In this document: one piece after another, positions 3,262 through 41,324 of the stretch | Layout: each line of letters begins with the position of its first letter | Numbering within the stretch: the stretch's first letter is position 1 | Assembly: GCA_043756865.1 (NCBI GenBank) | Contig: JAYUQG010000024.1 | Coordinates: 27,259-91,258 of the forward strand | Direction of reading: 5' to 3' | DNA length: 64,000 nt | Source of the DNA: a bacterium | Lineage (GTDB): Bacteria; Patescibacteriota; Minisyncoccia; Phycocordibacterales; UBA6899 | Translations under genes and position numbers: made by a program | The notes under the pieces: generated by a model | What the model saw: only the letters and a program-made list of their open reading frames with translations | Databases searched by the model: none | Told to the model about the DNA's origin: nothing

Positions 3262-4281
3262 TTATTTTTCGAACAAGCGAACAAGTGCTTCTGCAATTTT
3301 CCCTGCTACTGCGTATTCGGGGCGAAAGTTCGCCCATTCTGTGGGAATCCCACTCATGCCAACGCGTGCCCCAATCAGCGAACCCACGATTGCGGCGTTG
3401 GTATCGGTGTCGCCTCCTGCATTCACTGCTTCGGTAACTCCGCCCGCGAAGTCATCCATGTGTCGCAGGAATGTGCCGATGACGAATGGCATGGTCTGCG
3501 TACATACAAACCGTGAGCCGAACTTGTCGAGCAGGCGTTCCTTCGAGTCGGTATACCCTGCAATCTCTTGGAGTGTGTTTGCGAGTGTGCGATTCGCGGG
3601 ATTCGGAACGCAGAATGCTTCGAATTGTCGCACCTTGTGGGAAATGTCGATGAGTGTGAATGTCAGCTCGTCACGCGTCCGGTGTGCGTTTGCGAACACA
3701 TCGACAATGACCATTCCGACGGCAAATGCAGTAATCCATGCGCGGGCGTCACTGTGCGTGATGGCACCAAGCTCGCGCACGTGCTTGCCGAAGAGTTTCC
3801 AATTAAACGGAGTGTCGCATCCCTGCTTCTTCCACATGAGTGCGTGGAACAGCGCAAGTGGTGCGATTTTCATGATGATGCCGTTCCCGAGCCCGACCCC
3901 TGTTTTGTGTGGGGGCGGAAACATTCCGCTGCGCTTGCCATTGATGATGTCTTGAATCGCAGCAACGGAACCCTTGCCCCAGCCGAAGGTCGAGTTTTTG
4001 AGGGCTTCCATGTGAAGCGCTACGCAGAGACGTCTGTCCCAGCCGTTTGCTCTGATGAGCGACTCCGCGACAACTTTGGTCAAATCCCAGTCATCGCTCG
4101 TGTCGCCAGCCTTCATTCCCTTTGTGTCATCATTGCGCCACTGCACAGGGTCAAGAAATGTGGTGACTCCAAGCGGCCCCAGTATCCCGATAATTTCACT
4201 GTGTGTCATCGTTTCAACAGGAACGCCACGTGCGTCGCCGAGTGCAACTCCCAAGAGGGATGCATGTACTTTTTCCAGCAT
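3262..4281 (-). CDS. ADP-ribosylglycohydrolase family protein (DraG/ARH-like)
   Basis: N-terminal GVALGDARGVPVE and C-terminal AGGDTDTNAAIVGSLIGA are the hallmark motifs of the ADP-ribosylglycohydrolase family. Confidence 0.75.
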   Translation of the reverse strand: MLEKVHASLLGVALGDARGVPVETMTHSEIIGILGPLGVTTFLDPVQWRNDDTKGMKAGDTSDDWDLTKVVAESLIRANGWDRRLCVALHMEALKNSTFGWGKGSVAAIQDIINGKRSGMFPPPHKTGVGLGNGIIMKIAPLALFHALMWKKQGCDTPFNWKLFGKHVRELGAITHSDARAWITAFAVGMVIVDVFANAHRTRDELTFTLIDISHKVRQFEAFCVPNPANRTLANTLQEIAGYTDSKERLLDKFGSRFVCTQTMPFVIGTFLRHMDDFAGGVTEAVNAGGDTDTNAAIVGSLIGARVGMSGIPTEWANFRPEYAVAGKIAEALVRLFEK

Positions 4282-8614: not shown

Positions 8615-9571
8615 TTAGCTAATGAGGTGTAACAGGTCAACGTTGTGCGCTCCAATCGTACCGTTTACAAACGGTTCACGGTCGAATCGGATTGCATCGA
8701 CGAAGTCGGCAAGTTCAGCGTGATAAGGATCAACTGGTAGAAAATGGAGTGGCGTACCGTTTACTGCGATGCTGCCTTTGCCGTGAGCACCCAGAGTATC
8801 TGCGCATGTGCTGTGTCCCTGTGTCCCGTGAATTTCAATCACACGGGGGAGTATGGTGCGGTTTGATACCGCAATCGTCGCGCTTTTTCCAGTTTTCCAA
8901 TCGAGATGGATTGTTGCGGTATGTTCGAGCATGCCTACGTCGCTCTCACGAATCACATTGATTTCAGGTGCTCCTGTTTCTCCAAGAAACCAAGTTGCAA
9001 GGTCGAGGGCGTGAGTGCCTACGGCTGCAAGTACGAACCAGCGTGCCAACGTGTCACTACTTCGCCAGTCATCAGGTGGAGCACGGTATGACCACGTCAG
9101 TTTGATGTGCTGTGGCGTGCCGATTGCTCCCTGCCCTATTGCCTCACAGAGTTTACGATGCCCATCATGGTGTCGTAGGTGGTATCCGACCGCAAGCCTC
9201 ACCTTGTGTATTCGCGCTGCGTCACACATACGTAGGGCATCCTCGGGATTTGTCGCCATCGGCTTTTCGACAAAAATGTGTTTTCCCGCATGTGCGGCTT
9301 CGATGGACATAGCTGCATGTAGTTTGTCAGGTGTTGCAATGATGACCGCATCAAGTTCCGCATCTGCGAGCATGTCGGAGTAGGAAGAGTAAATCTTTTT
9401 TGCCCGGAATTGCTTGGCAAGCAGTTCTGCGCGCTTTGGGTCGCGACTGACAAGACCTTCTAATGTTGCATGTGGCACTGAAAGTAATGCGGGGAGGAGC
9501 CGCATAGTGGCTACCTCCCCGACACCGACAATGCCAACTTTTATGTGGGCTTCACGATGTGTGTTAGTCAT
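8615..9571 (-). CDS. Gfo/Idh/MocA family NAD(P)-dependent oxidoreductase
   Basis: Rossmann motif VGIVGVGEVA, then EKP in HIFVEKPMA, typical of the Gfo/Idh/MocA family. The ORF extends to 9697, but the first sensible ATG (MTNTHREAHIKVGIVG) is at 9571. That start avoids overlap with the upstream NUDIX gene. Confidence 0.7.
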   Translation of the reverse strand: MTNTHREAHIKVGIVGVGEVATMRLLPALLSVPHATLEGLVSRDPKRAELLAKQFRAKKIYSSYSDMLADAELDAVIIATPDKLHAAMSIEAAHAGKHIFVEKPMATNPEDALRMCDAARIHKVRLAVGYHLRHHDGHRKLCEAIGQGAIGTPQHIKLTWSYRAPPDDWRSSDTLARWFVLAAVGTHALDLATWFLGETGAPEINVIRESDVGMLEHTATIHLDWKTGKSATIAVSNRTILPRVIEIHGTQGHSTCADTLGAHGKGSIAVNGTPLHFLPVDPYHAELADFVDAIRFDREPFVNGTIGAHNVDLLHLIS

Positions 9572-10076
9572 ACTGTTCCATAATCGAAAAATAACGTTTG
9601 ACCACTCTCTGGTGGATAGGAAATGCGAGCCTCGTACTCTTGGTGATGAACATCCGCTCTGATGCTTCGTGGTTGGGAATGAACGGTGCAAGGTCACCGA
9701 GTGTCATGTGGGGCGCGCTTCCAAAGATGAGGATTACTCCATCGGGGGTAGAAACTACGTCATGTGTGATAATCGATTTTGGATTAACGTCGATGTTGGT
9801 CTCCTCTTTTGTTTCGCGCGCCGCAGCTTCTTGCCATGTTTCACCAAGTATCACGAATCCCCCTGGGGGAGAAATGTGTCCCGAGCGGACAGTGTTCTGA
9901 CGCCGGATTCCGACAAGCTTTCCGTTTACCGGAATGAGGAGCACAGCGACAGGAGTCGGGTTCTTCCACGTCATCTTGGTGCAGCCCACACAGGGTTTCG
10001 GCCAAATTTCTCCATCCGGAAAGCGGGTGCCGCAGAACGAACAATGTGTAAACGGTTTCATGATATTTCCTTTCAA
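9564..10076 (-). CDS. NUDIX hydrolase with N-terminal zinc ribbon
   Basis: CSFCGTRF...CVGC N-terminal zinc ribbon. Nudix box GGFVILGETWQEAAARETKEETNI. An alternative start at 10061 (MKPF) has a GGAAA ribosome-binding site. Confidence 0.75.
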   Translation of the reverse strand: MKGNIMKPFTHCSFCGTRFPDGEIWPKPCVGCTKMTWKNPTPVAVLLIPVNGKLVGIRRQNTVRSGHISPPGGFVILGETWQEAAARETKEETNIDVNPKSIITHDVVSTPDGVILIFGSAPHMTLGDLAPFIPNHEASERMFITKSTRLAFPIHQRVVKRYFSIMEQYD

Positions 10077-17780: not shown

Positions 17781-18974
17781 ATGGATTTGCAACACAAAGA
17801 CTTCCGTACATTGTTCCAGACACTTGTCATGTTTATTTCGCTTGTGACATACCCGCATACTGCATTTGCGGTACTTCCTCCAGATATTTTGTTTTCTGTG
17901 GGAGCCAGCCTCTGGCAAATTCTCGCCATGGTGGGTGTATTTGTGACTGGAGCAGCGATGTCGGTGCTGCCATTTCTCAAGGGTGTGTTTACGGGGGATC
18001 GTAACTGGAGGGTCATTTCGCTCTGCGTGGGACTCACATTGCTTGCGGGTACAGGACTGCTCGCATTTCTCTCAAGGCCCAATGCGACCCCCACACCACA
18101 GCCGTCTGTGTCCACTGGAACTTCTGCATCCCTGGGATATCGTTTCTTCGCTGATCGGTTTGTTATACACGGAACGCGTAAGGATGGTACCCCTCTTCTG
18201 GTTGATTTGGTGATCAATAGAAAAGAGGCCACTCCAGGAGTATTTGCACACTACTATATGGCGCAAATTATTGATGGCGAAGCAACCGCAAAAGACTATT
18301 TTACTAGGGATGCTGCATCGCATGAGGTCCTTCCCGACCTCCTTTTCACGCGATTTGTGCGACATGCTACGTCGAGTGAACCTTCACGCGAGTGGCAGGG
18401 GTTCTCATTTTACATGCTCGGGAAGCAATATGCGGTAAGCTCGGGCCCCATGGACGGGGATTTTGTGGTGCGTAACGTTCCTGAATACAGTGAGTATTCG
18501 AGTGCGGGGTCTGGAATCGTATCCGAGGAGGGGGAGCAGGTTCCTGTTTCTATTTATCACGAACGTGTTTACTCTACTGACTATCGTCCACTTATCTTCT
18601 TTGAAGGCTCCGTAACACTCCGTTCAGAGACCGTGCAACTCGTACTATGGGATGCACTTGGAAACTTTTATCTTATTGACCGCTCGCTCGTCCCCGAGCC
18701 TTCCCCTGTTTATGCTTCTCATTTTTGGGCGTTATACAAAGACACAATGGGATATGTCAAAAAGGGATTTGTGGGTGAGGCATCAATGCAGCGCGACGGA
18801 GAAACAGTTAAATTCTTTAGCACGGTCCCTGCATTTGCAGATGCGCAGGTTGGGGTGACGCTCAAAACAAAGTTTAAGGATGATTTCGACAAAGGGTACG
18901 TTGAAGGTCAGATTGCTGACAGCGCAGGAGTGCGAAAAATTTCTGGGCAAGGCTACTTTAATATCTATGAATAA
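17781..18974 (+). CDS. hypothetical membrane-anchored protein
   Basis: N-terminal TM helices, then a roughly 300-aa soluble domain. The ORF-track start at 17739 is TTG, and the first ATG is 17781. The 3' end overlaps the start of the next gene by 8 nt. Confidence 0.45.
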   Translation: MDLQHKDFRTLFQTLVMFISLVTYPHTAFAVLPPDILFSVGASLWQILAMVGVFVTGAAMSVLPFLKGVFTGDRNWRVISLCVGLTLLAGTGLLAFLSRPNATPTPQPSVSTGTSASLGYRFFADRFVIHGTRKDGTPLLVDLVINRKEATPGVFAHYYMAQIIDGEATAKDYFTRDAASHEVLPDLLFTRFVRHATSSEPSREWQGFSFYMLGKQYAVSSGPMDGDFVVRNVPEYSEYSSAGSGIVSEEGEQVPVSIYHERVYSTDYRPLIFFEGSVTLRSETVQLVLWDALGNFYLIDRSLVPEPSPVYASHFWALYKDTMGYVKKGFVGEASMQRDGETVKFFSTVPAFADAQVGVTLKTKFKDDFDKGYVEGQIADSAGVRKISGQGYFNIYE

Positions 18975-21054
18975 TAATATACCCACGGATTTCCTTGTCA
19001 GTGCTCTGAATACTATTGGGAAAGAAAAGGAGTTTGGAGGAAAGACCATACGTCTTGCAGAACTGATACGTGAGGGGTATGCAGTGCCTACTTTTTTTGC
19101 AATTTCCGCGCCATTGGTTTTCCGCATGAAGGAGGAATTTAAAATTGATACTTATACAGTAGTGACGCAAATAGCTCACGAAGTGACCGTGCGTATCCCT
19201 GCGACACATTATGCGGTTCGTTCAAGCGCGCTTGCAGAGGACGGTGGCAACTCATCACATGCAGGAGAGTTTCTGACGTGCCTTAATGTTCCACCCGAAG
19301 GCGTTGCACAAGCAATCGCTGATGTGTTCCGTGATGCAATGCATAAAGGTTACGTCACCGCCGCACTCCCATTTTCAATAATTATTCAGGAATTTCAGGA
19401 ACCCGAGTTGGCTGGGGTACTATTCACGCGGCACCCGAGCGGTGAACGTGAGATGCTTCTTGAATGGACAAAGGGTAGGGGGGAGCAGGTTGTCTCAGGT
19501 CGTGGTGGAAAACGTTTGTCTTTTTTACGCGGCTCTCCGCCCTCCGCACTACCTCCAGCAGCGCGCCCGCTTGTGGATGTTGGCATTGCCATTGAATCAC
19601 TTTATAACTTTCCTCAGGATATCGAATGGGCAGTATCGGGCGGAAGACTGTTCTTGCTCCAAACTCGTCCTATCACCACGATTACTGGAGAGCGGTATGC
19701 GGGTATACTCAAGGCAGACGAAGTGGCGATGGGTTACCCAAAGGAATATTATTATGCGCGCGGTACACTGGCTGAGTCGTTTTCACGACCGCCTATCCTC
19801 GCTCGTTCCTTGCTGGAATACGTCTATCGTGCTTCCGGTCCTGTTGAACGCGCGTATCGCAAGCTTGGGGTGCATCCTGCATCAGCAGTGAGTTTTGTGA
19901 CGCTTTGTGGGGCATACTACATCGACCGAGAGTCGGAACTGAGGCAGTTTTATCCGACGCACAGCTATTTTGGCGGCACGCTACTGCGCCCGCATGTGGT
20001 GACACTCTCTGGGCTCTTTCGCACAATGCAAAATACGCGCGCACTCGCGCAACTTCCAAGAAAAAATATTGATACATATAAAGCAGAATTTACTGCAATT
20101 ACACATGAATGGTCTGAACTGGCAGACACAAGTGCCACATGGGAAGAGCATCTTTTGTTTCTCGACGCGTGGTACGAGCAAATATTTTTGGTCAACGTGG
20201 AGACCGAGGCGGCCATGCATAAACTGCGTGGTGCACTGCGTGGCTCGCCACACGCACTGGCAAATGTTATTGGCGCAACACTAGAGAACGTTGCCACACA
20301 TGCTCCACGCACCGCATTGCTTGGGGGAGTAAAAGCGCACATGAAGGGAAACTCGTTGAACATTGCTGATATGAGCGTATTTCAACACAAGCCTCCTGTA
20401 GCTACTCACTCGAACTTGGCGATACGTGATTGGTACAATGCGCTACCTTCGTCCCATCGTTCGCGTTTTGCACAAGCACTAGGAGAGTACCGTGCATATG
20501 AAGCACTCCGTGAGGAGGGGAGGTGGCTTACTGTCTTGCTCATGTCTGGACTACGGGACGCACTTATGCAGCGTAGTGCAGCATCAGGAATTCCAAATGA
20601 ACTTTGCTTTTTTCTCACACTCGACGAACTTCGGAGCGGGGATTGTGCAGTCGAAAAACTCAGGTCACGGTTTCAGGAACAAAGAGCATCTGACTTACTT
20701 GATTTTCCAGACGTTATTGCAAGCATTCCACGAGAGCGAAGCGAAGAAATCTATGGAGTTTCCGCAGGGGTGGCAACGGGCACACTTTCCTCATCTCGGA
20801 CAAACAAGGAAAAAGACACAATACTATTGGTAGATCATCTCGACCCGGAATTAGTCAGACATTTCCCGCACATAGCAGGAATCATCGCACGAGAAGGAGG
20901 AATACTCTCGCATCTTGCAATCATCGCTCGCGAATATGGAATCCCTGTTGTTGTCGATAGGCGCAGCGGTTCTTCATATCGGAGCGGAGACCACGTGCGG
21001 ATAGACGGAGGAAGTGGAACTATTGAGGTATCTGTAGCCCAGGAGAAGACATAA
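18967..21054 (+). CDS. PEP-utilizing enzyme family protein (PPDK-type N-terminal ATP-grasp plus C-terminal phosphohistidine swivel domain; PEP synthase / rifampicin-phosphotransferase-like)
   Basis: AVRSSALAEDGGNSSHAGEFLTCLNV matches the PPDK_N (pyruvate phosphate dikinase PEP/pyruvate-binding N-domain) motif. C-terminal GGILSHLAIIAREYGIPVVV matches the PEP-utilizers mobile His domain. No C-terminal PEP/pyruvate TIM-barrel. Confidence 0.65.
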   Translation: MNNNIPTDFLVSALNTIGKEKEFGGKTIRLAELIREGYAVPTFFAISAPLVFRMKEEFKIDTYTVVTQIAHEVTVRIPATHYAVRSSALAEDGGNSSHAGEFLTCLNVPPEGVAQAIADVFRDAMHKGYVTAALPFSIIIQEFQEPELAGVLFTRHPSGEREMLLEWTKGRGEQVVSGRGGKRLSFLRGSPPSALPPAARPLVDVGIAIESLYNFPQDIEWAVSGGRLFLLQTRPITTITGERYAGILKADEVAMGYPKEYYYARGTLAESFSRPPILARSLLEYVYRASGPVERAYRKLGVHPASAVSFVTLCGAYYIDRESELRQFYPTHSYFGGTLLRPHVVTLSGLFRTMQNTRALAQLPRKNIDTYKAEFTAITHEWSELADTSATWEEHLLFLDAWYEQIFLVNVETEAAMHKLRGALRGSPHALANVIGATLENVATHAPRTALLGGVKAHMKGNSLNIADMSVFQHKPPVATHSNLAIRDWYNALPSSHRSRFAQALGEYRAYEALREEGRWLTVLLMSGLRDALMQRSAASGIPNELCFFLTLDELRSGDCAVEKLRSRFQEQRASDLLDFPDVIASIPRERSEEIYGVSAGVATGTLSSSRTNKEKDTILLVDHLDPELVRHFPHIAGIIAREGGILSHLAIIAREYGIPVVVDRRSGSSYRSGDHVRIDGGSGTIEVSVAQEKT

Positions 21055-23545: not shown

Positions 23546-24043
23546 GTGTCCATGCTTATCGATCTTCGTGACCGAGTCTCCACAAGGGCTGCAACGCTCT
23601 TTCTCGACGAGCAGCGTTCGCAAGGCAAAAAAATTGGCTACACATCGGGTTGCTATGACCTGATACATTTCAATCACTTCTGGTACTTTCAACTGTGTCG
23701 TCGGCAGTGTGATGTACTCATTGTCGGGGTTGATTCTGACGAAATGGTGCGCAGCGAAAAAGGCCTAACGCGTCCGTTCACGTCTGACTTCAAGCGACTC
23801 TTGATGGTGGATGCACTCAAGCCGGTCACCTTTGCATTCATCATGGGGAGTTCCTCTGACTTTGCTCGGGCAGCAGAACTCTTCACCCCCGACTACATGT
23901 TCCGCAACGACGACTTTCTCGGACGCGAAGACCAAGTGTGGGGACGCGAGTTTGCTGGCGAGGTGGTCATCATCCGTGACGTTGAGGACCACACCTCAAC
24001 AACAGCACTTTCACGGAGCATTGCGAGTCGCCTCGCCACATAG
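23546..24043 (+). CDS. cytidylyltransferase-like nucleotidyltransferase (RfaE/HldE domain II-like) with degenerate HxGH
   Basis: GYTSGCYDLIHFNHFWYFQLCRRQCDVLIVGVDSDEMV aligns to the (H/T)xGH nucleotidyltransferase fold, but with HFNH in place of HxGH. GAGGAG ribosome-binding site. Confidence 0.45.
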   Translation: MSMLIDLRDRVSTRAATLFLDEQRSQGKKIGYTSGCYDLIHFNHFWYFQLCRRQCDVLIVGVDSDEMVRSEKGLTRPFTSDFKRLLMVDALKPVTFAFIMGSSSDFARAAELFTPDYMFRNDDFLGREDQVWGREFAGEVVIIRDVEDHTSTTALSRSIASRLAT

Positions 24044-24087: not shown

Positions 24088-24113
24088 AACACCCCAATGC
24101 AGGGGTGTGTGAT
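24088..24113. terminator. bidirectional terminator
   Basis: AAAAAACACCCC-aatgca-GGGGTGTGTG palindrome between convergent genes. Confidence 0.5.
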
Positions 24114-24114
24114 A

Positions 24115-25149
24115 CTAACTCAAAGGTACTGAGGAGGCAAACGGAGCGCGTTCATACACACCACGAAAGCCGTCGAATACATTGATAGCGCGTCCAAGGA
24201 GGTCTTCCTTGAGACAGAGCTCGTCGCAGAGCATCATGCGCCGGTATCCAATGTCGTAGAGCCATGCGAGCTCCGACAGATCAGCGTTTGAAGGCACAGA
24301 GTCACGAATGGCCGAAAGGAGAATCCGCGAACCGACGCAGGCCTCAGGGTCTTTGTCGGCAATCAGCCTTACTGCGGAAAGGATATCGTGCGGTCGGTCG
24401 ACTTCGACGAACATGTCACCGCGTGCTGCGACGAGTGAGAGTTCATTACACTTTCTGAAGTCACGCTCGACATACGCGAGTCCTTTTTTGTCCTCAATCT
24501 TGAGGTAGACCTCGGCATCACGTCCGACGAGCTCGCGAAATTCGTCCACATCGCGTTTCGACTGAACGTACGAAAGAAAGTACTTCGTAAATCCCGCTGC
24601 TTTCACGCGTGCTATCTTTGCGAGTTCTTTGTCGGTGAACTGTGGGCCAAAAACTTCCAAACTGGGATGACGAATATGGAGTGACTCGCCTGCGACCAGA
24701 TTGTAGTGTGGTTCGCGGGGCGAAAGTACCAGTCGTCTCCCGTTCTCTTCAATCCGCTCCAAGAGTGCATGATCGGCTCCCGCTTTGAATAAGACAGGAG
24801 TCGGGGTCACGACCTTGATGGGGTGATTCAAGACGAGTTCGTAGTGATCGTCTGCACGATGCACTTCTTCGATACGCAACTGTCGTCCCTTCACATCGAA
24901 GTAGAGGGGGACAGGGTTTGTGCTTGCACGACTGCCGAGCCGCGCGAGTTCTTCCTCGAGCATGGGCCCCGTAATCATCGCACTGTTGAGGCGGATGCCG
25001 TGGAGCCGTTTGTCGGTCGCGAATCGTTCGAAGTGTGGGAAGCTAGGCCACAAGGTGACCATAAGCTCGAGCTTGAGGCTCTCGCGAACGAATGTCGGAT
25101 CTCGCCGAAACATTCTATCCAACAGATCACGCAAGCGCGTCGAGCTCAT
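24115..25149 (-). CDS. pyruvate kinase-like barrel protein (A+B domain-like; no C-terminal regulatory domain)
   Basis: KIEDKKGLAYVERDFRKCNELSLVAARGDMFVEVD parallels PK KIEN..G..N.DEI...DGIMVARGDLGVEI. LYFDVKGRQLRI parallels the PK DTKGPEIR block. Start chosen at 25149, which has an AAGGAAAGGA ribosome-binding site. The ORF extends to 25236. Confidence 0.45.
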   Translation of the reverse strand: MSSTRLRDLLDRMFRRDPTFVRESLKLELMVTLWPSFPHFERFATDKRLHGIRLNSAMITGPMLEEELARLGSRASTNPVPLYFDVKGRQLRIEEVHRADDHYELVLNHPIKVVTPTPVLFKAGADHALLERIEENGRRLVLSPREPHYNLVAGESLHIRHPSLEVFGPQFTDKELAKIARVKAAGFTKYFLSYVQSKRDVDEFRELVGRDAEVYLKIEDKKGLAYVERDFRKCNELSLVAARGDMFVEVDRPHDILSAVRLIADKDPEACVGSRILLSAIRDSVPSNADLSELAWLYDIGYRRMMLCDELCLKEDLLGRAINVFDGFRGVYERAPFASSVPLS

Positions 25150-26122
25150 CGCTGTCGTCCTTTCCTTTGCGTCCGGCGAGTCGTGACTTGCCGGGGTCAA
25201 CCACTGCGCCACCGCGCTTCGGTCCAGGGAGTGCAAGCACGGTCTTTAATGATTTCATCACGGTGAGCACTTGGTCATGGCGTTGGCGACCTGCGATTTC
25301 TTCTTGGAAGTACCCAATACGCCCAGACTCCTTGGCCAGAATCCCGAAGATGACGTCCACGACGCGGTCAGCTGACGGCAAGATTGCGATGTGGTCGGCA
25401 CCGATGAGCGCAGCCCAGTCGTCGTATATGCGTTGGTCTGTGGGGGTCATGCGGTCGCCTGGCGTATCGTCATAAGGCTTCTTCACGAGGTAGACTGCGA
25501 ACTTTTGTCTGAGTTCATCAAATACCTGTTTTGTTGTGATGTTGCCTTCGAGGTCGACGTGCGCATATTTCTTTGCGTCATCCTTGGTAATCATGTCGTA
25601 CGGCGATTCGTCGCCGATGAAGATGATGACGGGATTCACGGCGTTCGGAAGCGATGCATTACGCGCATAGTAGAGCGCAGCAAGTTCATATGTCTCCTGC
25701 TTTGTCCCACCACCCTTTTTTTCCATGATGAGCGCTTCGAGTTCCGACTTCATGTGTTCGCCTTTGGAAAAGGCGCGAATTTGAAGTGGGTAGTCTTCCC
25801 GATGGCGTGCGTCCCCGATTGCTGCAAAGGAGAACTCGACATCTGTGCCGAGATATTCTTCACGTGCTTCGTGGTCGAGGTACGGCAGCTTCGAAAACAT
25901 GACTGCCGGCCAATCTGCCATTGAGCCAGTTTGGTCAGCCACAATCACGAGTGCAGCGCGTGCTGCGGTCGCAATCGAGGTTGGGACAACATCCTTGAGG
26001 TCCCTGCCCGTTTTCTTTGCGTCGTCGTAGCTGCGCCCGGCGTGGACGTCGTATGCACGTCGTGCGCTTGAAAAGTCATGGCCGCCGCCCCATGCGGGGG
26101 TGAAATCGCCTGCTTCAGACAT
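25127..26122 (-). CDS. von Willebrand factor type A (vWA) domain protein
   Basis: The MIDAS (metal-ion-dependent adhesion site) DxSxS motif occurs as VIVADQTGSM. Downstream T and IGD-like metal-coordination positions are present. A Lys/Arg-rich C-terminal tail. Confidence 0.6.
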   Translation of the reverse strand: MSEAGDFTPAWGGGHDFSSARRAYDVHAGRSYDDAKKTGRDLKDVVPTSIATAARAALVIVADQTGSMADWPAVMFSKLPYLDHEAREEYLGTDVEFSFAAIGDARHREDYPLQIRAFSKGEHMKSELEALIMEKKGGGTKQETYELAALYYARNASLPNAVNPVIIFIGDESPYDMITKDDAKKYAHVDLEGNITTKQVFDELRQKFAVYLVKKPYDDTPGDRMTPTDQRIYDDWAALIGADHIAILPSADRVVDVIFGILAKESGRIGYFQEEIAGRQRHDQVLTVMKSLKTVLALPGPKRGGAVVDPGKSRLAGRKGKDDSDELDALA

Positions 26123-26158
26123 GAGTTTGTCCTTTCGAGAGTGGGATTGATGTGAGGT

Positions 26159-27193
26159 TCACGACTTCACGCCGCGAATGGGTTTCATGCCCGAGGTGCT
26201 GCGACCAAACGCGGCAACTCGGATACGTTGGAATTCTTCGGTGATGTTTCTCTTGTTCCAGTTCGGACGTCTCATGACGTCGCGCACGATGAGCGAGCGT
26301 ATGAAGTCGCACATGGCGTCGGGTACTGTTGATGGTACTTCTTTGCGCACCACGGTCTCAATGCCGCCCCCCAAAAGAAACAGCATGGTCATGCCGAGAC
26401 TGTAGAAGTCGGTCTCGGGAATGAGCGGTTTTCCTTGAAGCTGTTCTTGCGGAGAAAAATGCTCGGTATATCCATCGGCTTGCGTGTCTCGGTCCGGCTT
26501 CACTTGCGAGAGTCCGAAGTCGACGAGACAAACGGTGTGGTCTGTCTCCTGCACGATGATGTTCTGCGGCTTGATGTCGCCGTGCACCACTCCGTTGTAG
26601 TGCAGATAGTGCAGTGCATTCAAGAGCCGCTCCGTAATCCATGCAACTGATTCTGCATCGAGTCGCCCTTTTTCTTCAACGATGTCGAAGAGATTTTTGC
26701 CCGGAATGTAGCTCATCACGAGAAAGTAGCGACCGTCGTCGGTGCGCACCAGCTCGCGTACTGCGGGGAGTGCAAAGTGTCGCAAGTCCCACAGCAGTTT
26801 TGTCTCACGCAAGAGGATAGCTTGAATATTCGCCTCGGGCCATGCGCAGTCTTTGATGCAGACAGGCAGTCCCGTGACAACATGTTCTGCAAGATAGGTT
26901 CTTCCAAACCCGCCTGCGGCAATCTTGCTTTTCACGCGATAAGCTCCCACGAGCTTGCCGCTGACACCTTCGCCTCGACGATACTTGTCGTATTGTTGAC
27001 GCAGTGCGTCGTCCCCAATCACGTTATAGGCCTCGTTGATCTCCTGTGACGTCCGCACGGTGCTTCCGTGGTCAGGATGCTTCAGGCTCATGAGTGCTTT
27101 CCACGCCGCTTTTATCACGGCAGGGTCGGCGGTCGGATGAACCTGAAGCCGCGCATAGAGGTCATGCTCGAACGCGGATAGTACTGGCTTCAT
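26159..27193 (-). CDS. J-domain (DnaJ-like) fused to Ser/Thr protein kinase
   Basis: N-terminal DLYARLQVHPTADPAVIKAAWKALMSLKHPDHG...EINEAYNVIGDDALRQQYD is a J-domain with its HPD motif. The kinase domain has AAGGFGRTY (Gly loop), VCIK, HGDIKPQNI (catalytic loop) and DFGLS. Confidence 0.7.
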   Translation of the reverse strand: MKPVLSAFEHDLYARLQVHPTADPAVIKAAWKALMSLKHPDHGSTVRTSQEINEAYNVIGDDALRQQYDKYRRGEGVSGKLVGAYRVKSKIAAGGFGRTYLAEHVVTGLPVCIKDCAWPEANIQAILLRETKLLWDLRHFALPAVRELVRTDDGRYFLVMSYIPGKNLFDIVEEKGRLDAESVAWITERLLNALHYLHYNGVVHGDIKPQNIIVQETDHTVCLVDFGLSQVKPDRDTQADGYTEHFSPQEQLQGKPLIPETDFYSLGMTMLFLLGGGIETVVRKEVPSTVPDAMCDFIRSLIVRDVMRRPNWNKRNITEEFQRIRVAAFGRSTSGMKPIRGVKS

Positions 27194-27389
27194 GCGATAT
27201 GTCTCCTTTCATAAAACTGAATTAATGTTCTCCTGTCCAAAATCTACAATATTTTTTACAAAAGTAAATGGGCCAGGTGAGCCTTGCTCACCTGGCCCAC
27301 GCTTGTGCTTAATCCATTTTTTTGTTCCGACTTCATTCATTTTTTAGCGGAAACAAGGTACTCTGGAATCAGAGCGCAAAGGAGCAGGT

Positions 27390-32751: not shown

Positions 32752-32813
32752 CCATCTCCACAATTATAAAAAGAACGCCCGTATGGGCGTTCTTTTTATA
32801 ATTGTGGAGATGG
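32752..32813. repeat. 29-bp perfect inverted repeat (hairpin, loop GTAT) overlapping the tmRNA 3' end; core acts as bidirectional terminator
   Basis: CCATCTCCACAATTATAAAAAGAACGCCC-gtat-GGGCGTTCTTTTTATAATTGTGGAGATGG. The right arm contains the tmRNA acceptor 3' strand. The inner GAACGCCC/GGGCGTTC stem is flanked by A- and T-runs. Confidence 0.7.
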
Positions 32814-33190
32814 CGGGTTTGACCCCGCGTCCAGCAGAGAAGAGCACAAAGGTCTACGTGCGTAGTTTGTCTCATTGATTTCATGTCGCAAGGGCTAGGC
32901 AAACAAAACCTTACGAGCACTACTCCCTTAATTTTCGTTATCGTATTCGGGTACTACGATACTTATCCTGAAAATATGACACGAAGTACGGGCCTATCAG
33001 GCGTACTCCCGCTTCGCGCCGTCTACTTAAGCGTAGGCGAAAGCGAAATTGTTAGCCTTAAAGTAAGGCGTTGCAACTCCACCGGTGCTTTTCTTGGCAC
33101 TTTCAAGTTGTTCGCGTGATTTACGAGACTACGAACATGCTCGGCACGCACATTGCACAGCAACTTCCACTGTCGAAACAGTTCATCCCC
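32805..33190 (-). ncRNA. ssrA: tmRNA (ssrA), one-piece
   Basis: Minus-strand 5' end GGGGATGAACTGTTTCGACAGTGG...GTGCGTGCCGAG resembles the tmRNA 5' consensus. The tag reading frame is GCTAACAATTTCGCTTTCGCCTACGCTTAA (ANNFAFAYA-stop, at 33027-33056). The 3' end is a T-arm GCGGG-GTCAAAC-CCCGC plus acceptor CATCTCC-A. That acceptor pairs with 5' GGGGATG and gives a G3:U70 pair. It lies immediately downstream of smpB. Confidence 0.8.
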
Positions 33191-40418: not shown

Positions 40419-40844
40419 ATGACACGTACTAATGTTGTTTCATTCCTCCCGTTCATGGTGACAATCGACGTGCGCGTCGAGCTTGCGCTTATGACCATGA
40501 ATACGACGTTGTGTTTCGGCCCATTCAATACACAAGAAAGTGCCGATAGTTGGTCGGGTGAGGTGCACCGTTTGCACAAAGACGTCGAGCGTCGTGAAGA
40601 TACTATTGCAGATAGTGTTAGCGACGAGCTCGGCATTCCTACTGCGGAGTTTATTCGTGCATATGTGACCCTCCCCGATTCGTTCCAAGTGGGCAAAGAT
40701 GCGCGAGAAGATGGAAACCTCATTCCGACGCACGCACCTGAGATTGATGCGCGAGATATGCGTATCTATGCGCTCCGCGCATTCGCATCAGCGGTCGACT
40801 ACACTTTGGAGCGACTCATCCAGACACCGCCCCTGCATTCATAG
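40419..40844 (+). CDS. hypothetical protein
   Basis: AAAGGAG ribosome-binding site 7 nt upstream of the ATG at 40419. Terminator CCGAGG-acaca-CCTCGG plus T6 at 40847-40870. Confidence 0.45.
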   Translation: MTRTNVVSFLPFMVTIDVRVELALMTMNTTLCFGPFNTQESADSWSGEVHRLHKDVERREDTIADSVSDELGIPTAEFIRAYVTLPDSFQVGKDAREDGNLIPTHAPEIDARDMRIYALRAFASAVDYTLERLIQTPPLHS

Positions 40845-40965
40845 AACCGAGGACACACCTCGGTTTTTTGTTGCTCAGAATGTATTTATTCATTATGATA
40901 ACTGCACAATTTCCCCCCGTAGCTGTCTTGGTAGGTATCGGGCGCTAGTAAGGAGTTGTTTATTT

Positions 40966-41038
40966 CCACCCGTAGCTCAGTTGGTAGAGCGGTCGTCTTA
41001 TACACGACTGGTCCCTGGTTCGAGTCCAGGCGGGTGGA
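40966..41038 (+). tRNA. tRNA-Ile with anticodon UAU (decodes AUA)
   Basis: Cloverleaf: acceptor CCACCCG/CGGGTGG, D-arm GCTC-AGTTGGTA-GAGC, anticodon arm GTCGT-CTTATAC-ACGAC (positions 34-36 are TAT), T-arm CCTGG-TTCGAGT-CCAGG, discriminator A, 73 nt. No encoded CCA. Confidence 0.75.
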
Positions 41039-41324
41039 CAAGCGAGACTCACAATGTAGAACACTGTGCGCTTGTCCAAGCCACAGCCATATCGAGGCTT
41101 GGCGAGATGGCGAGGCGGTGTGAGGCTCGGTCAAGGGAACCCAGCTTTGTGGGAACCGAGCCGCAAGACTCATTGAGAACTTTTGTCATCAAAAGATCCA
41201 ATGAGTGGACAGCTCCTGTAAGGAGGCGAACATTTCAGAAAAATTGACTTTTTGTGTCTTTCATGTTATTAAGGATATAGATGGGTAATGTCGCCCACCT
41301 CTCTGCAATGAAAGCGAGTTTGAC

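Follow-up and report, generated by a model that had tools for sequence, protein, structure and literature searches.

We analyzed a 64,000-nucleotide stretch (the window) of contig JAYUQG010000024.1 (assembly GCA_043756865.1, positions 27,259 to 91,258, forward strand) from a bacterium of the Patescibacteriota. On its minus strand, three head-to-tail genes encode a protein with an N-terminal J-domain fused to a Hanks-type Ser/Thr kinase, a protein with a predicted von Willebrand factor A (vWA) fold, and a pyruvate kinase (PK)-like protein that lacks the C-terminal domain. The three genes are co-inherited, in near-obligate fashion, in bacteria of the candidate phyla radiation (CPR) and in DPANN archaea. 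Our best, still tentative, explanation is that the operon is a kinase/vWA phospho-switch resembling TerY-P, coupled to Hsp70 through the J-domain, that would control a divergent phosphoenolpyruvate (PEP)-dependent phosphotransferase.

The operon and its three proteins

A preliminary description, made from the sequence of the window, had placed an operon at positions 24115-27193. Open reading frame (ORF) calling on the window recovered three ORFs head-to-tail on the minus strand at these coordinates (Table 1), and the overlapping or abutting arrangement described earlier, with the vWA stop overlapping the PK-like start, was borne out: a 36-nt gap separates the kinase and vWA genes, and the vWA stop and PK-like start overlap by 23 nt when the latter is set at 25149, a spacing typical of an operon. 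The maximal ORF of the PK-like gene spans 24115-25236; the ATG at 25149 (344 aa), as in the public gene call, is the likely start, and an alternative Met at 25113, used by NCBI, gives 332 aa. A consensus scan placed a terminator-like hairpin with a T-run directly 3′ of the PK-like stop and two hairpins (27692-27673 and 27300-27268) between the upstream gene and the kinase start, of which the nearer could mark the end of the upstream unit or belong to a 5′ leader. Gene spacing, together with flanking hairpins found by consensus matching, fits a single transcription unit. Each protein has about 800-1100 homologous clusters (E below 1e-20 to 1e-100), and therefore the three ORFs are not chance.

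Table 1. Features of the cassette, of related loci and of the rest of the window (positions refer to the window unless preceded by a locus handle)
Feature	Position	Strand	Remark
Gene 1, J-domain/Hanks-type Ser/Thr kinase fusion	26159-27193	-	344 aa, ORF
J-domain, residues 11-69	26987-27163	-	Pfam DnaJ PF00226, model positions 1-63 of 63
HPD, H39-P40-D41	27071-27079	-	translation
Kinase domain, residues about 85-330	26204-26941	-	Pfam Pkinase and conserved columns
Gene 2, predicted vWA-fold protein, cytoplasmic	25127-26122	-	331 aa, ORF
MIDAS-like D63-x-T65-G-S67 (DQTGS, 63-67)	25922-25936	-	conservation and model
MIDAS-like E143	25694-25696	-	invariant
MIDAS-like D171-E172	25607-25612	-	D171 invariant
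Gene 3, PK-like A+B-domain protein without C domain	24115-25149	-	344 aa
R53-x-N55			R72, N74 of PK; invariant in 43
D85-x-K87-G-R-Q-L-R92			D112-T-K-G-P-E-I-R119 of PK; D85, K87, R92 invariant in 43
K217-I-E219	24493-24501	-	K269, E271 of PK; invariant in 43
G244-D245			D295 of PK; D245 invariant in 43
S274			T327 of PK, Thr to Ser; invariant in 43
E310 (C308-D-E310)			E363 of PK; invariant in 43
Terminator-like hairpin and T-run	24089-24108	-	directly 3′ of PK-like stop; consensus scan
15-bp GC-rich hairpin	27268-27300	-	~75 nt 5′ of J-kinase start; consensus scan
Distant eukaryote-like vWA homologs			P0366, P0367, P0381 (U-box); P0380 (NUDIX); P0387 (SAM); P0382 (RanBP zinc finger)
PP2C directly after kinase	L006:2846-3658, L010:3907-4650, L093:1666-2442		same strand
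PP2C divergent upstream	L020:4046-4822, L096:3367-4194, L130:2158-3027
PP2C directly after PK-like gene	L031:8011-8889
P4	L069:6960-7829, L045:6374-7237, L065:6943-7851, L111:764-1639, L149:6941-7831, L170:9064-10008, L013:2266-3135
AbrB-PhoU regulator	L002:9977-10924, L015:3881-4831, L029:3854-4798, L024:2496-3437		and about 14 more DPANN loci
PPDK_N (ATP-grasp) and PEP-utilizers swivel protein	18880-21054	+	724 aa
rfaE-domain-II-like adenylyltransferase	23546-24043	+	76 bits, below 181-bit cut-off; convergent with PK-like gene
ADP-ribosylglycohydrolase homolog	3262-4281	-	not adjacent to cassette
NUDIX gene	9564-10076	-	not adjacent to cassette
tmRNA	32802-33190
tRNA-Ile, anticodon TAT	40966-41039	+	predicted; inside 182-aa ORF span 40699-41247

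The N-terminal fusion of an HPD-bearing J-domain to an intact Hanks kinase, claimed in the preliminary description, was confirmed by profile searches. The J-domain of the window protein scores 42.2 bits against Pfam DnaJ (gathering score 27.8), and residues 85-276 match Pfam Pkinase (PF00069) with 116 bits. Translation gives VCIK (K114), HGDIKPQN (D206, N211) and DFG (D225-F-G227). Across 56 aligned kinases of related loci, G94 and G97 of the G-loop, K114, E130, H204, D206, N211, G227, T243 of the activation loop, E250 and R309 are invariant, D225 is nearly so, and a 15-residue C-terminal tail (FGRxxSxMKPIxG) is conserved. By these residues the domain is a Hanks kinase with a full catalytic set, and the only extra domain on it is the N-terminal J-domain.

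All 56 of these kinases match Pkinase and 48 match DnaJ, and on such profile matches the J-domain is a hallmark of the family. In a large protein collection the family comprises 804 clusters at E≤1e-20, and PF00226 and PF00069 occur together in 118 of the 120 top ones, whose kind is labeled in the sources just 'serine/threonine protein kinase' or 'protein kinase'. Among 58 complete relatives the HPD is intact in 35 (~60%) and degenerate in 16 (~28%; forms include YPD, GPD, FPN and APR), and the J-domain is absent from 7 (~12%). Recruitment of Hsp70 therefore cannot be obligatory everywhere.

The earlier claim of a vWA protein with a metal-ion-dependent adhesion site (MIDAS) beside the kinase stood as far as the predicted fold and residues go; detection by sequence profile failed. 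The protein has no Pfam, NCBIfam or PADLOC match at E≤1, and no PDB sequence was matched by the single sequence or by a 42-sequence family profile. An hhalign comparison of the vWA profile with an integrin I-domain sequence gave no informative alignment. An AlphaFold (AF2) model built on the 42-sequence family alignment has a predicted local distance difference test score (pLDDT) of 87 and is disordered only at residues 1-6 and 300-331. With this model, Foldseek returned 58 PDB matches at E≤1e-3, the best down to 1e-5; the matches listed have probabilities of 0.99-1.0 and target-normalised template modeling (TM) scores of 0.5-0.6, and integrin beta I-like, vWF A1/A3, anthrax-receptor vWA, TFIIH p44 and MDN1 MIDAS domains were matched. 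The gene 2 product is a vWA fold recognisable by predicted structure only.

D63, G66, S67, E143 and D171 are invariant in the 42 sequences, and T65 is nearly so. In the model, DQTGS follows strand 56-63, E143 lies in the loop before helix 145-155 and D171 follows strand 165-170; these residues would occupy MIDAS positions, with the first Ser replaced by Thr, and form a putative metal site. Conservation extends to an N-terminal peptide, MSExGD[YF]xP (M1, E3, P9 and F17 invariant; S2, G5, D6, W12, G14 and D16 nearly so), and to G311-x-S313, invariant inside the otherwise disordered C-terminal tail. We infer that both may be docking or phospho-acceptor peptides.

In a library of 1.84 billion representatives, the vWA family comprises 336 clusters at E≤1e-30, 1118 at E≤1e-10 and 1535 at E≤1e-3; judged by these searches, it is a family without a Pfam or NCBIfam entry. 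Its distant homologs (profile E about 1e-50) share the motifs DVTGSMG, KLP.[FY], GDE, KPY and VDV with the cassette protein, but have MGGxYYxR N-termini and C-terminal effector domains, being fused to U-box (ubiquitin-ligase), NUDIX, SAM or RanBP zinc-finger domains. The clade reaches protists, because a distant member, P0380, comes from a marine eukaryote transcriptome; these homologs are not known to occur with a kinase or a PK-like protein.

Two loci carry tandem vWA paralogs (L018, 5002-5973 and 5986-6948; L064, 4968-5945 and 6001-7002), and the first copy in L064 has a degenerate MIDAS (DNTRS, VND). In a 'Spirochaetales'-labeled clade the vWA proteins bear long Lys/Thr-rich repetitive tails (L036:4110-5777; L021:6001-7185).

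The last gene had been described as encoding a PK-like A/B-domain protein of 330-370 aa without the C-terminal domain, and its 344-aa product has this architecture. It scores 29.5 bits against the Pfam PK barrel (PF00224), marginally below the gathering score of 30, and many homologs are pre-annotated with PF00224; the TIGR01064 equivalog score is 27.6 bits vs. a cut-off of 306.4. Pyruvate kinases of the PDB were found at E 2e-5 with the single sequence and 1e-9 with the family profile, and blastp aligned the protein to PykF with 24% identity over 171 residues. The AF2 model has a pLDDT of 90, and its top 50 Foldseek matches are all pyruvate kinases (E about 3e-17, TM about 0.65-0.71, ~345 columns), the superposed columns being those of the A barrel and B lid. 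The C-terminal alpha/beta domain is absent: there is no match to PK_C (PF02887), and the protein ends ~30 residues past the barrel.

Residue correspondences were read from 43 family members aligned to PykF and PKM (rabbit numbering). The Lys/Glu/Arg and metal-ligand set of PK is largely kept (Table 1); a family-wide departure is A57 in place of the K+ ligand S76. The protein is probably an active PK-type phosphotransferase, as far as its residues tell, and a deep PK paralog whose substrate or regulation may differ from that of canonical PK. Given the substitutions from canonical PK, its substrate may not be PEP/ADP. No canonical pyruvate kinase was found in the window or in the flanks, which cover only a few kb per genome. 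In public annotation several members are called 'pyruvate kinase' and others 'hypothetical protein'. A Pacearchaeota 'pyruvate kinase' is reported from a DPANN metaproteome.

Co-inheritance in CPR bacteria and DPANN archaea

Loci were gathered through the vWA family: 66 from species-representative genomes, 20 from IMG/VR and 80 from metagenome contigs (from 345 confirmed relatives), plus contigs found by exact protein look-up; de-replication left 145 non-redundant loci. The kinase gene adjoins the vWA gene in 119 of the 121 loci with room upstream, and the PK-like gene does so in 117 of the 119 with room downstream. The three genes thus stand together in about 98% of relatives, as expected if the operon of the window is a conserved unit. 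The four exceptions are L049 and L055, which lack the kinase gene, and L090 and L091, in which the vWA gene is decayed and the PK-like gene missing. The association is kept where the kinase gene is divergently oriented (L006, L008, L010 and L068), and also at other loci where additional genes stand between the cassette members. Across the CPR and DPANN hosts the three genes are almost always inherited together.

By submitter names, the CPR hosts are Falkow-, Lloyd-, Adler-, Sungii-, Nealson-, Davies-, Collier-, Uhr- and Buchananbacteria, Paceibacterota and Parcubacteria, and the DPANN hosts are Woese-, Pace- and Nanoarchaeota and the complete AR15 chromosome. Woesearchaeota contigs carry the genes in the same order, next to those for archaeal ribosomal proteins and Spt5. 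Identity across Bacteria and Archaea is 45-65% for all three proteins, and their pairwise distances correlate (r = 0.84 for vWA/PK-like, 0.73 for kinase/vWA and 0.64 for kinase/PK-like). In a neighbor-joining tree the DPANN sequences fall mostly into a single clade within the CPR sequences, with the window sequence as its sister, and two deeper archaeal pairs branch separately. This topology suggests a small number of inter-domain transfers.

Host labels such as Gammaproteobacteria, Spirochaetales and Methanosarcinales on some loci were not counted as signs of a wider spread: these are automated labels of metagenome-assembled genomes, and the loci cluster with CPR or DPANN in the tree. Viral carriage was considered, since 20 IMG/VR contigs (L072-L091, 45-485 kb) hold the full cassette, and set aside. 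Their flanks hold a CCA-adding enzyme, Thg1, orotidine monophosphate (OMP) decarboxylase, glycosyltransferases and tRNA arrays, and the contigs are probable CPR/DPANN cellular fragments.

Relation to known systems and a proposed mechanism

The kinase-vWA pairing had been likened earlier to bacterial signalling triads, and it does have a precedent in TerY-P. PMC11090510 summarises TerY-P (Anantharaman et al. 2012) as a kinase/PP2C/vWA triad, proposed to act as a phosphorylation-dependent switch, and the same kinase, PP2C and vWA theme appears in PMC7159879. As in TerY-P, a Hanks-type Ser/Thr kinase gene lies beside a stand-alone MIDAS-type vWA gene, and a PP2C gene can join them. The absence of a PP2C partner, as first described, holds for the window; however, a single PP2C orthogroup adjoins the cassette in 7 of the 145 loci, all CPR, in three arrangements (Table 1), which strengthens the link to kinase/vWA/PP2C triads. 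The cassette differs from TerY-P in that (i) its vWA protein matches no TerY_C, Pfam VWA or PADLOC model; (ii) its kinase carries an N-terminal J-domain, whereas the TerY-P kinase has a C-terminal zinc ribbon or OB fold; (iii) PP2C is usually unlinked, with none in the window; and (iv) a PK-like enzyme is the constant third member, and the hosts are CPR and DPANN.

With canonical pyruvate kinase (PykF, PKM; PF00224 plus PF02887), the PK-like protein shares the A (TIM barrel) and B (lid) fold and the motifs R-x-N, D-x-K-G-x-x-x-R, K-I-E and G-D, along with counterparts of T327 (as Ser) and E363. It differs in having no C domain, 15-24% identity, two invariant Cys and an altered K+ site. The cassette falls outside both TerY-P and canonical PK, yet by analogy it would work most like TerY-P acting on a PK relative. 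In Mycobacterium and Staphylococcus, pyruvate kinase is a substrate of Hanks kinases.

Two further systems combine some of the same parts. The eukaryotic cyclin-G-associated kinase (GAK, or auxilin-2), whose kinase and J-domain jointly remodel an assembly, has a Ser/Thr kinase and a J-domain in one polypeptide, as in gene 1; its kinase is N-terminal, however, its J-domain C-terminal, and it has PTEN-like and clathrin-binding regions. There is no evidence that GAK and the J-domain/kinase fusion share an ancestor. The stress- or metabolism-linked module PrkA/YeaG - YeaH (DUF444, vWA-like) - SpoVR/YcgB has a kinase gene followed by a vWA-like gene, but PrkA is an AAA+-fused atypical kinase, and the module has neither a PK-like enzyme nor a J-domain; none of the cassette proteins matches the DUF444 or SpoVR profile. 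A literature search of incomplete coverage found no description of the operon or of a prokaryotic J-domain/Hanks-kinase family.

In the TerY-P-like switch that we tentatively propose, the kinase, the vWA protein and the PK-like protein would form a complex, with the conserved terminal peptides of the vWA protein and the kinase serving as docking or phospho-acceptor sites. The kinase would phosphorylate one or both of its partners, the vWA protein and the PK-like enzyme; a PP2C, whether encoded close by or at another site, would counteract it, and the vWA MIDAS site would read an acidic or phosphorylated residue. Where the HPD is intact, as in the window, the J-domain would bring DnaK/Hsp70, so that the complex is remodeled or released in the manner of GAK/auxilin. 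The regulated output would be PEP-dependent phosphoryl transfer by the PK-like enzyme, most simply ATP formation, and the partner proteins would replace the regulation that normally comes from the missing allosteric/tetramerisation C domain.

Several observations weigh against this proposal. On the chaperone side, ~40% of family members lack an intact HPD or the J-domain altogether, and tblastn over the window and all retrieved flanks found no DnaK gene near the cassette. On the phosphatase side, only 7 of 145 loci have PP2C next to the cassette, and the 64-kb window contains none. For the enzyme, the altered K+ site and V86/R89/Q90 in place of T113/P116/E117 are conserved in the family, invariant C308 and C312 in the active-site helix replace S362 and A366, and identity to real pyruvate kinases is only about 15-24%; true pyruvate kinase orthologs share an estimated 40% or so. 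Finally, the distance correlations (r 0.64-0.84) are confounded by shared phylogeny.

Neighboring genes and competing explanations

Clustering of all flanking ORFs over all loci gave four recurrent partners and no fourth universal gene. Besides PP2C, 9 loci have a gene for a 287-aa protein (P4) within the operon, at three different positions; the protein has the invariant motifs GGR..TDW, PxWWLE.SS and GF..G.GE..F.SH, and no Pfam, NCBIfam or PDB match, profile included. A regulator of ~315 aa with AbrB-like and PhoU domains is encoded next to the cassette in 17-18 DPANN loci; its gene usually lies upstream of the kinase in divergent orientation, and in two cases downstream of the PK-like gene.

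Genes of NAD and ADP-ribose metabolism form the remaining theme. In the most divergent archaeal loci, L069 (2938-9637) and L070 (4-5139), the cassette is co-directional amid NAD genes, with overlapping stops and starts, in the order NadE, NUDIX, NMNAT, kinase, vWA, P4, PK-like and NAD kinase. Locus L108 (3762-11028) has kinase, vWA, PK-like, NUDIX, an unidentified gene, ADP-ribosylglycohydrolase and NAD kinase, and NadE, NAD kinase, NUDIX or ADP-ribosylglycohydrolase genes are near the cassette in L006 (156-10048), L008 and L109 (4150-8280). We treat this linkage as a lead.

Within the window, a 724-aa protein with PPDK_N and PEP-utilizers domains, but without the C-terminal PEP/pyruvate-binding barrel, is encoded 3 kb from the PK-like gene. 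Its linkage to the cassette was considered and rejected, as it is not conserved at other loci. The adjacent cytidylyltransferase-like gene was considered as NMNAT and rejected in favor of an rfaE-domain-II-like assignment; this family also adjoins the cassette in L008 (1547-2029) and lies 4 kb upstream in L150 (5156-5578). The tmRNA marks the window as bacterial, and its gene content, including DUF5671 and FtsH, together with the nearest homologs suggests a CPR/Patescibacteria genome. The ORF at 40699-41247 is probably not a gene, because a tRNA-Ile is predicted inside its span.

The NAD lead bears on two readings. In the first, which is doubtful, the operon would be a chaperone-coupled phospho-signalling machine confined to ultra-small symbionts: the PK-like protein would be a non-glycolytic, PEP-driven phosphotransferase gated by kinase/PP2C/vWA and Hsp70 and connected with NAD(P)/ADP-ribose or nucleotide salvage, and the vWA protein would belong to a clade with the protist vWA-U-box and vWA-NUDIX proteins. 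If true, it would mean ATP regeneration or a new phosphoryl acceptor, and a machine exchanged between Bacteria and Archaea.

The second reading ties the cassette to NAD(P)/ADP-ribose or nucleotide salvage, so that the switch would control an ATP-regenerating step, or another phosphoryl transfer, in the service of NAD synthesis or ADP-ribose recycling and not of general glycolysis. The embedding of the cassette in L069/L070, the adjacent genes in L108, L006, L008 and L109, and the eukaryotic vWA homolog fused to a NUDIX domain speak for it, as does the count of NadE, NAD kinase and NMNAT genes, 13 in 1.06 Mb of flanks vs. ~3 expected, the expectation being a rough estimate with no real genome backgrounds behind it and the loci not being independent. 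However, these neighbors occur in only ~10 of 145 loci, several of which share descent (~5 independent events); in the window 15-20 kb separate the cassette from the nearest genes for ADP-ribosylglycohydrolase and NUDIX, and the adjacent nucleotidyltransferase is not NMNAT. We consider this reading rather unlikely.

It is still less probable that the PK-like protein is a plain housekeeping glycolytic pyruvate kinase, with the kinase and vWA protein as unrelated or generic regulators and the J-like domain as a leftover without Hsp70. The catalytic residues are kept, several members carry the public label 'pyruvate kinase', DPANN metabolic reconstructions score 'pyruvate kinase' as present (PMC8091004, PMC11537232), and the HPD is degenerate in ~28% of members. 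Against this, synteny of ~98% over two domains, kept through rearrangements, is unexpected for unrelated neighbors; divergence from canonical PK is extreme, and the J-domain keeps its HPD in the majority of members, the window included.

An anti-virus or conflict system of TerY-P type, in which the kinase and vWA protein sense infection and the PK-like effector depletes or diverts a metabolite, is very improbable: although TerY-P-like kinase/PP2C/vWA modules are reported as stand-alone anti-phage systems (Gao et al. 2020, cited in PMC11090510), the cassette is patchy (66 loci in species-representative genomes), has crossed between Bacteria and Archaea and is present on the 20 IMG/VR contigs, and the best PADLOC matches of the kinase are defence kinases (MADS6, PD-T4-6), those matches are generic (MADS6, PD-T4-6, MkoA), the vWA and PK-like proteins have none and PADLOC-DB 2.0 gives no system-level match for the cassette, the three proteins show unusually high conservation (45-65%) and nothing that suggests diversification, the flanks are housekeeping (ribosomal proteins, Thg1, RNase HII, OMP decarboxylase), restriction or defence genes do not recur in them save for a small HNH gene in one clade, and the IMG/VR contigs resemble cellular CPR/DPANN fragments.

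The genomes of CPR bacteria and DPANN archaea are tiny and encode few regulators, and the energy metabolism of these organisms is based on substrate-level phosphorylation. A three-gene module that keeps 45-65% identity across both domains likely matters for the lifestyle they share. If the kinase/vWA switch acts on the PK-like enzyme as tentatively proposed, the module would be a testable handle on regulation of the PEP-to-ATP step or of a related phosphoryl transfer, and would extend the kinase/PP2C/vWA theme to a metabolic enzyme. Metabolic reconstructions may meanwhile count a divergent, regulated PK paralog as a glycolytic enzyme. Two families gain definition beyond the cassette: the vWA family, which has no Pfam model and numbers over 1,100 clusters at E≤1e-10, and the J-domain/Hanks-kinase fusions, which by their profile matches form a large prokaryotic family.

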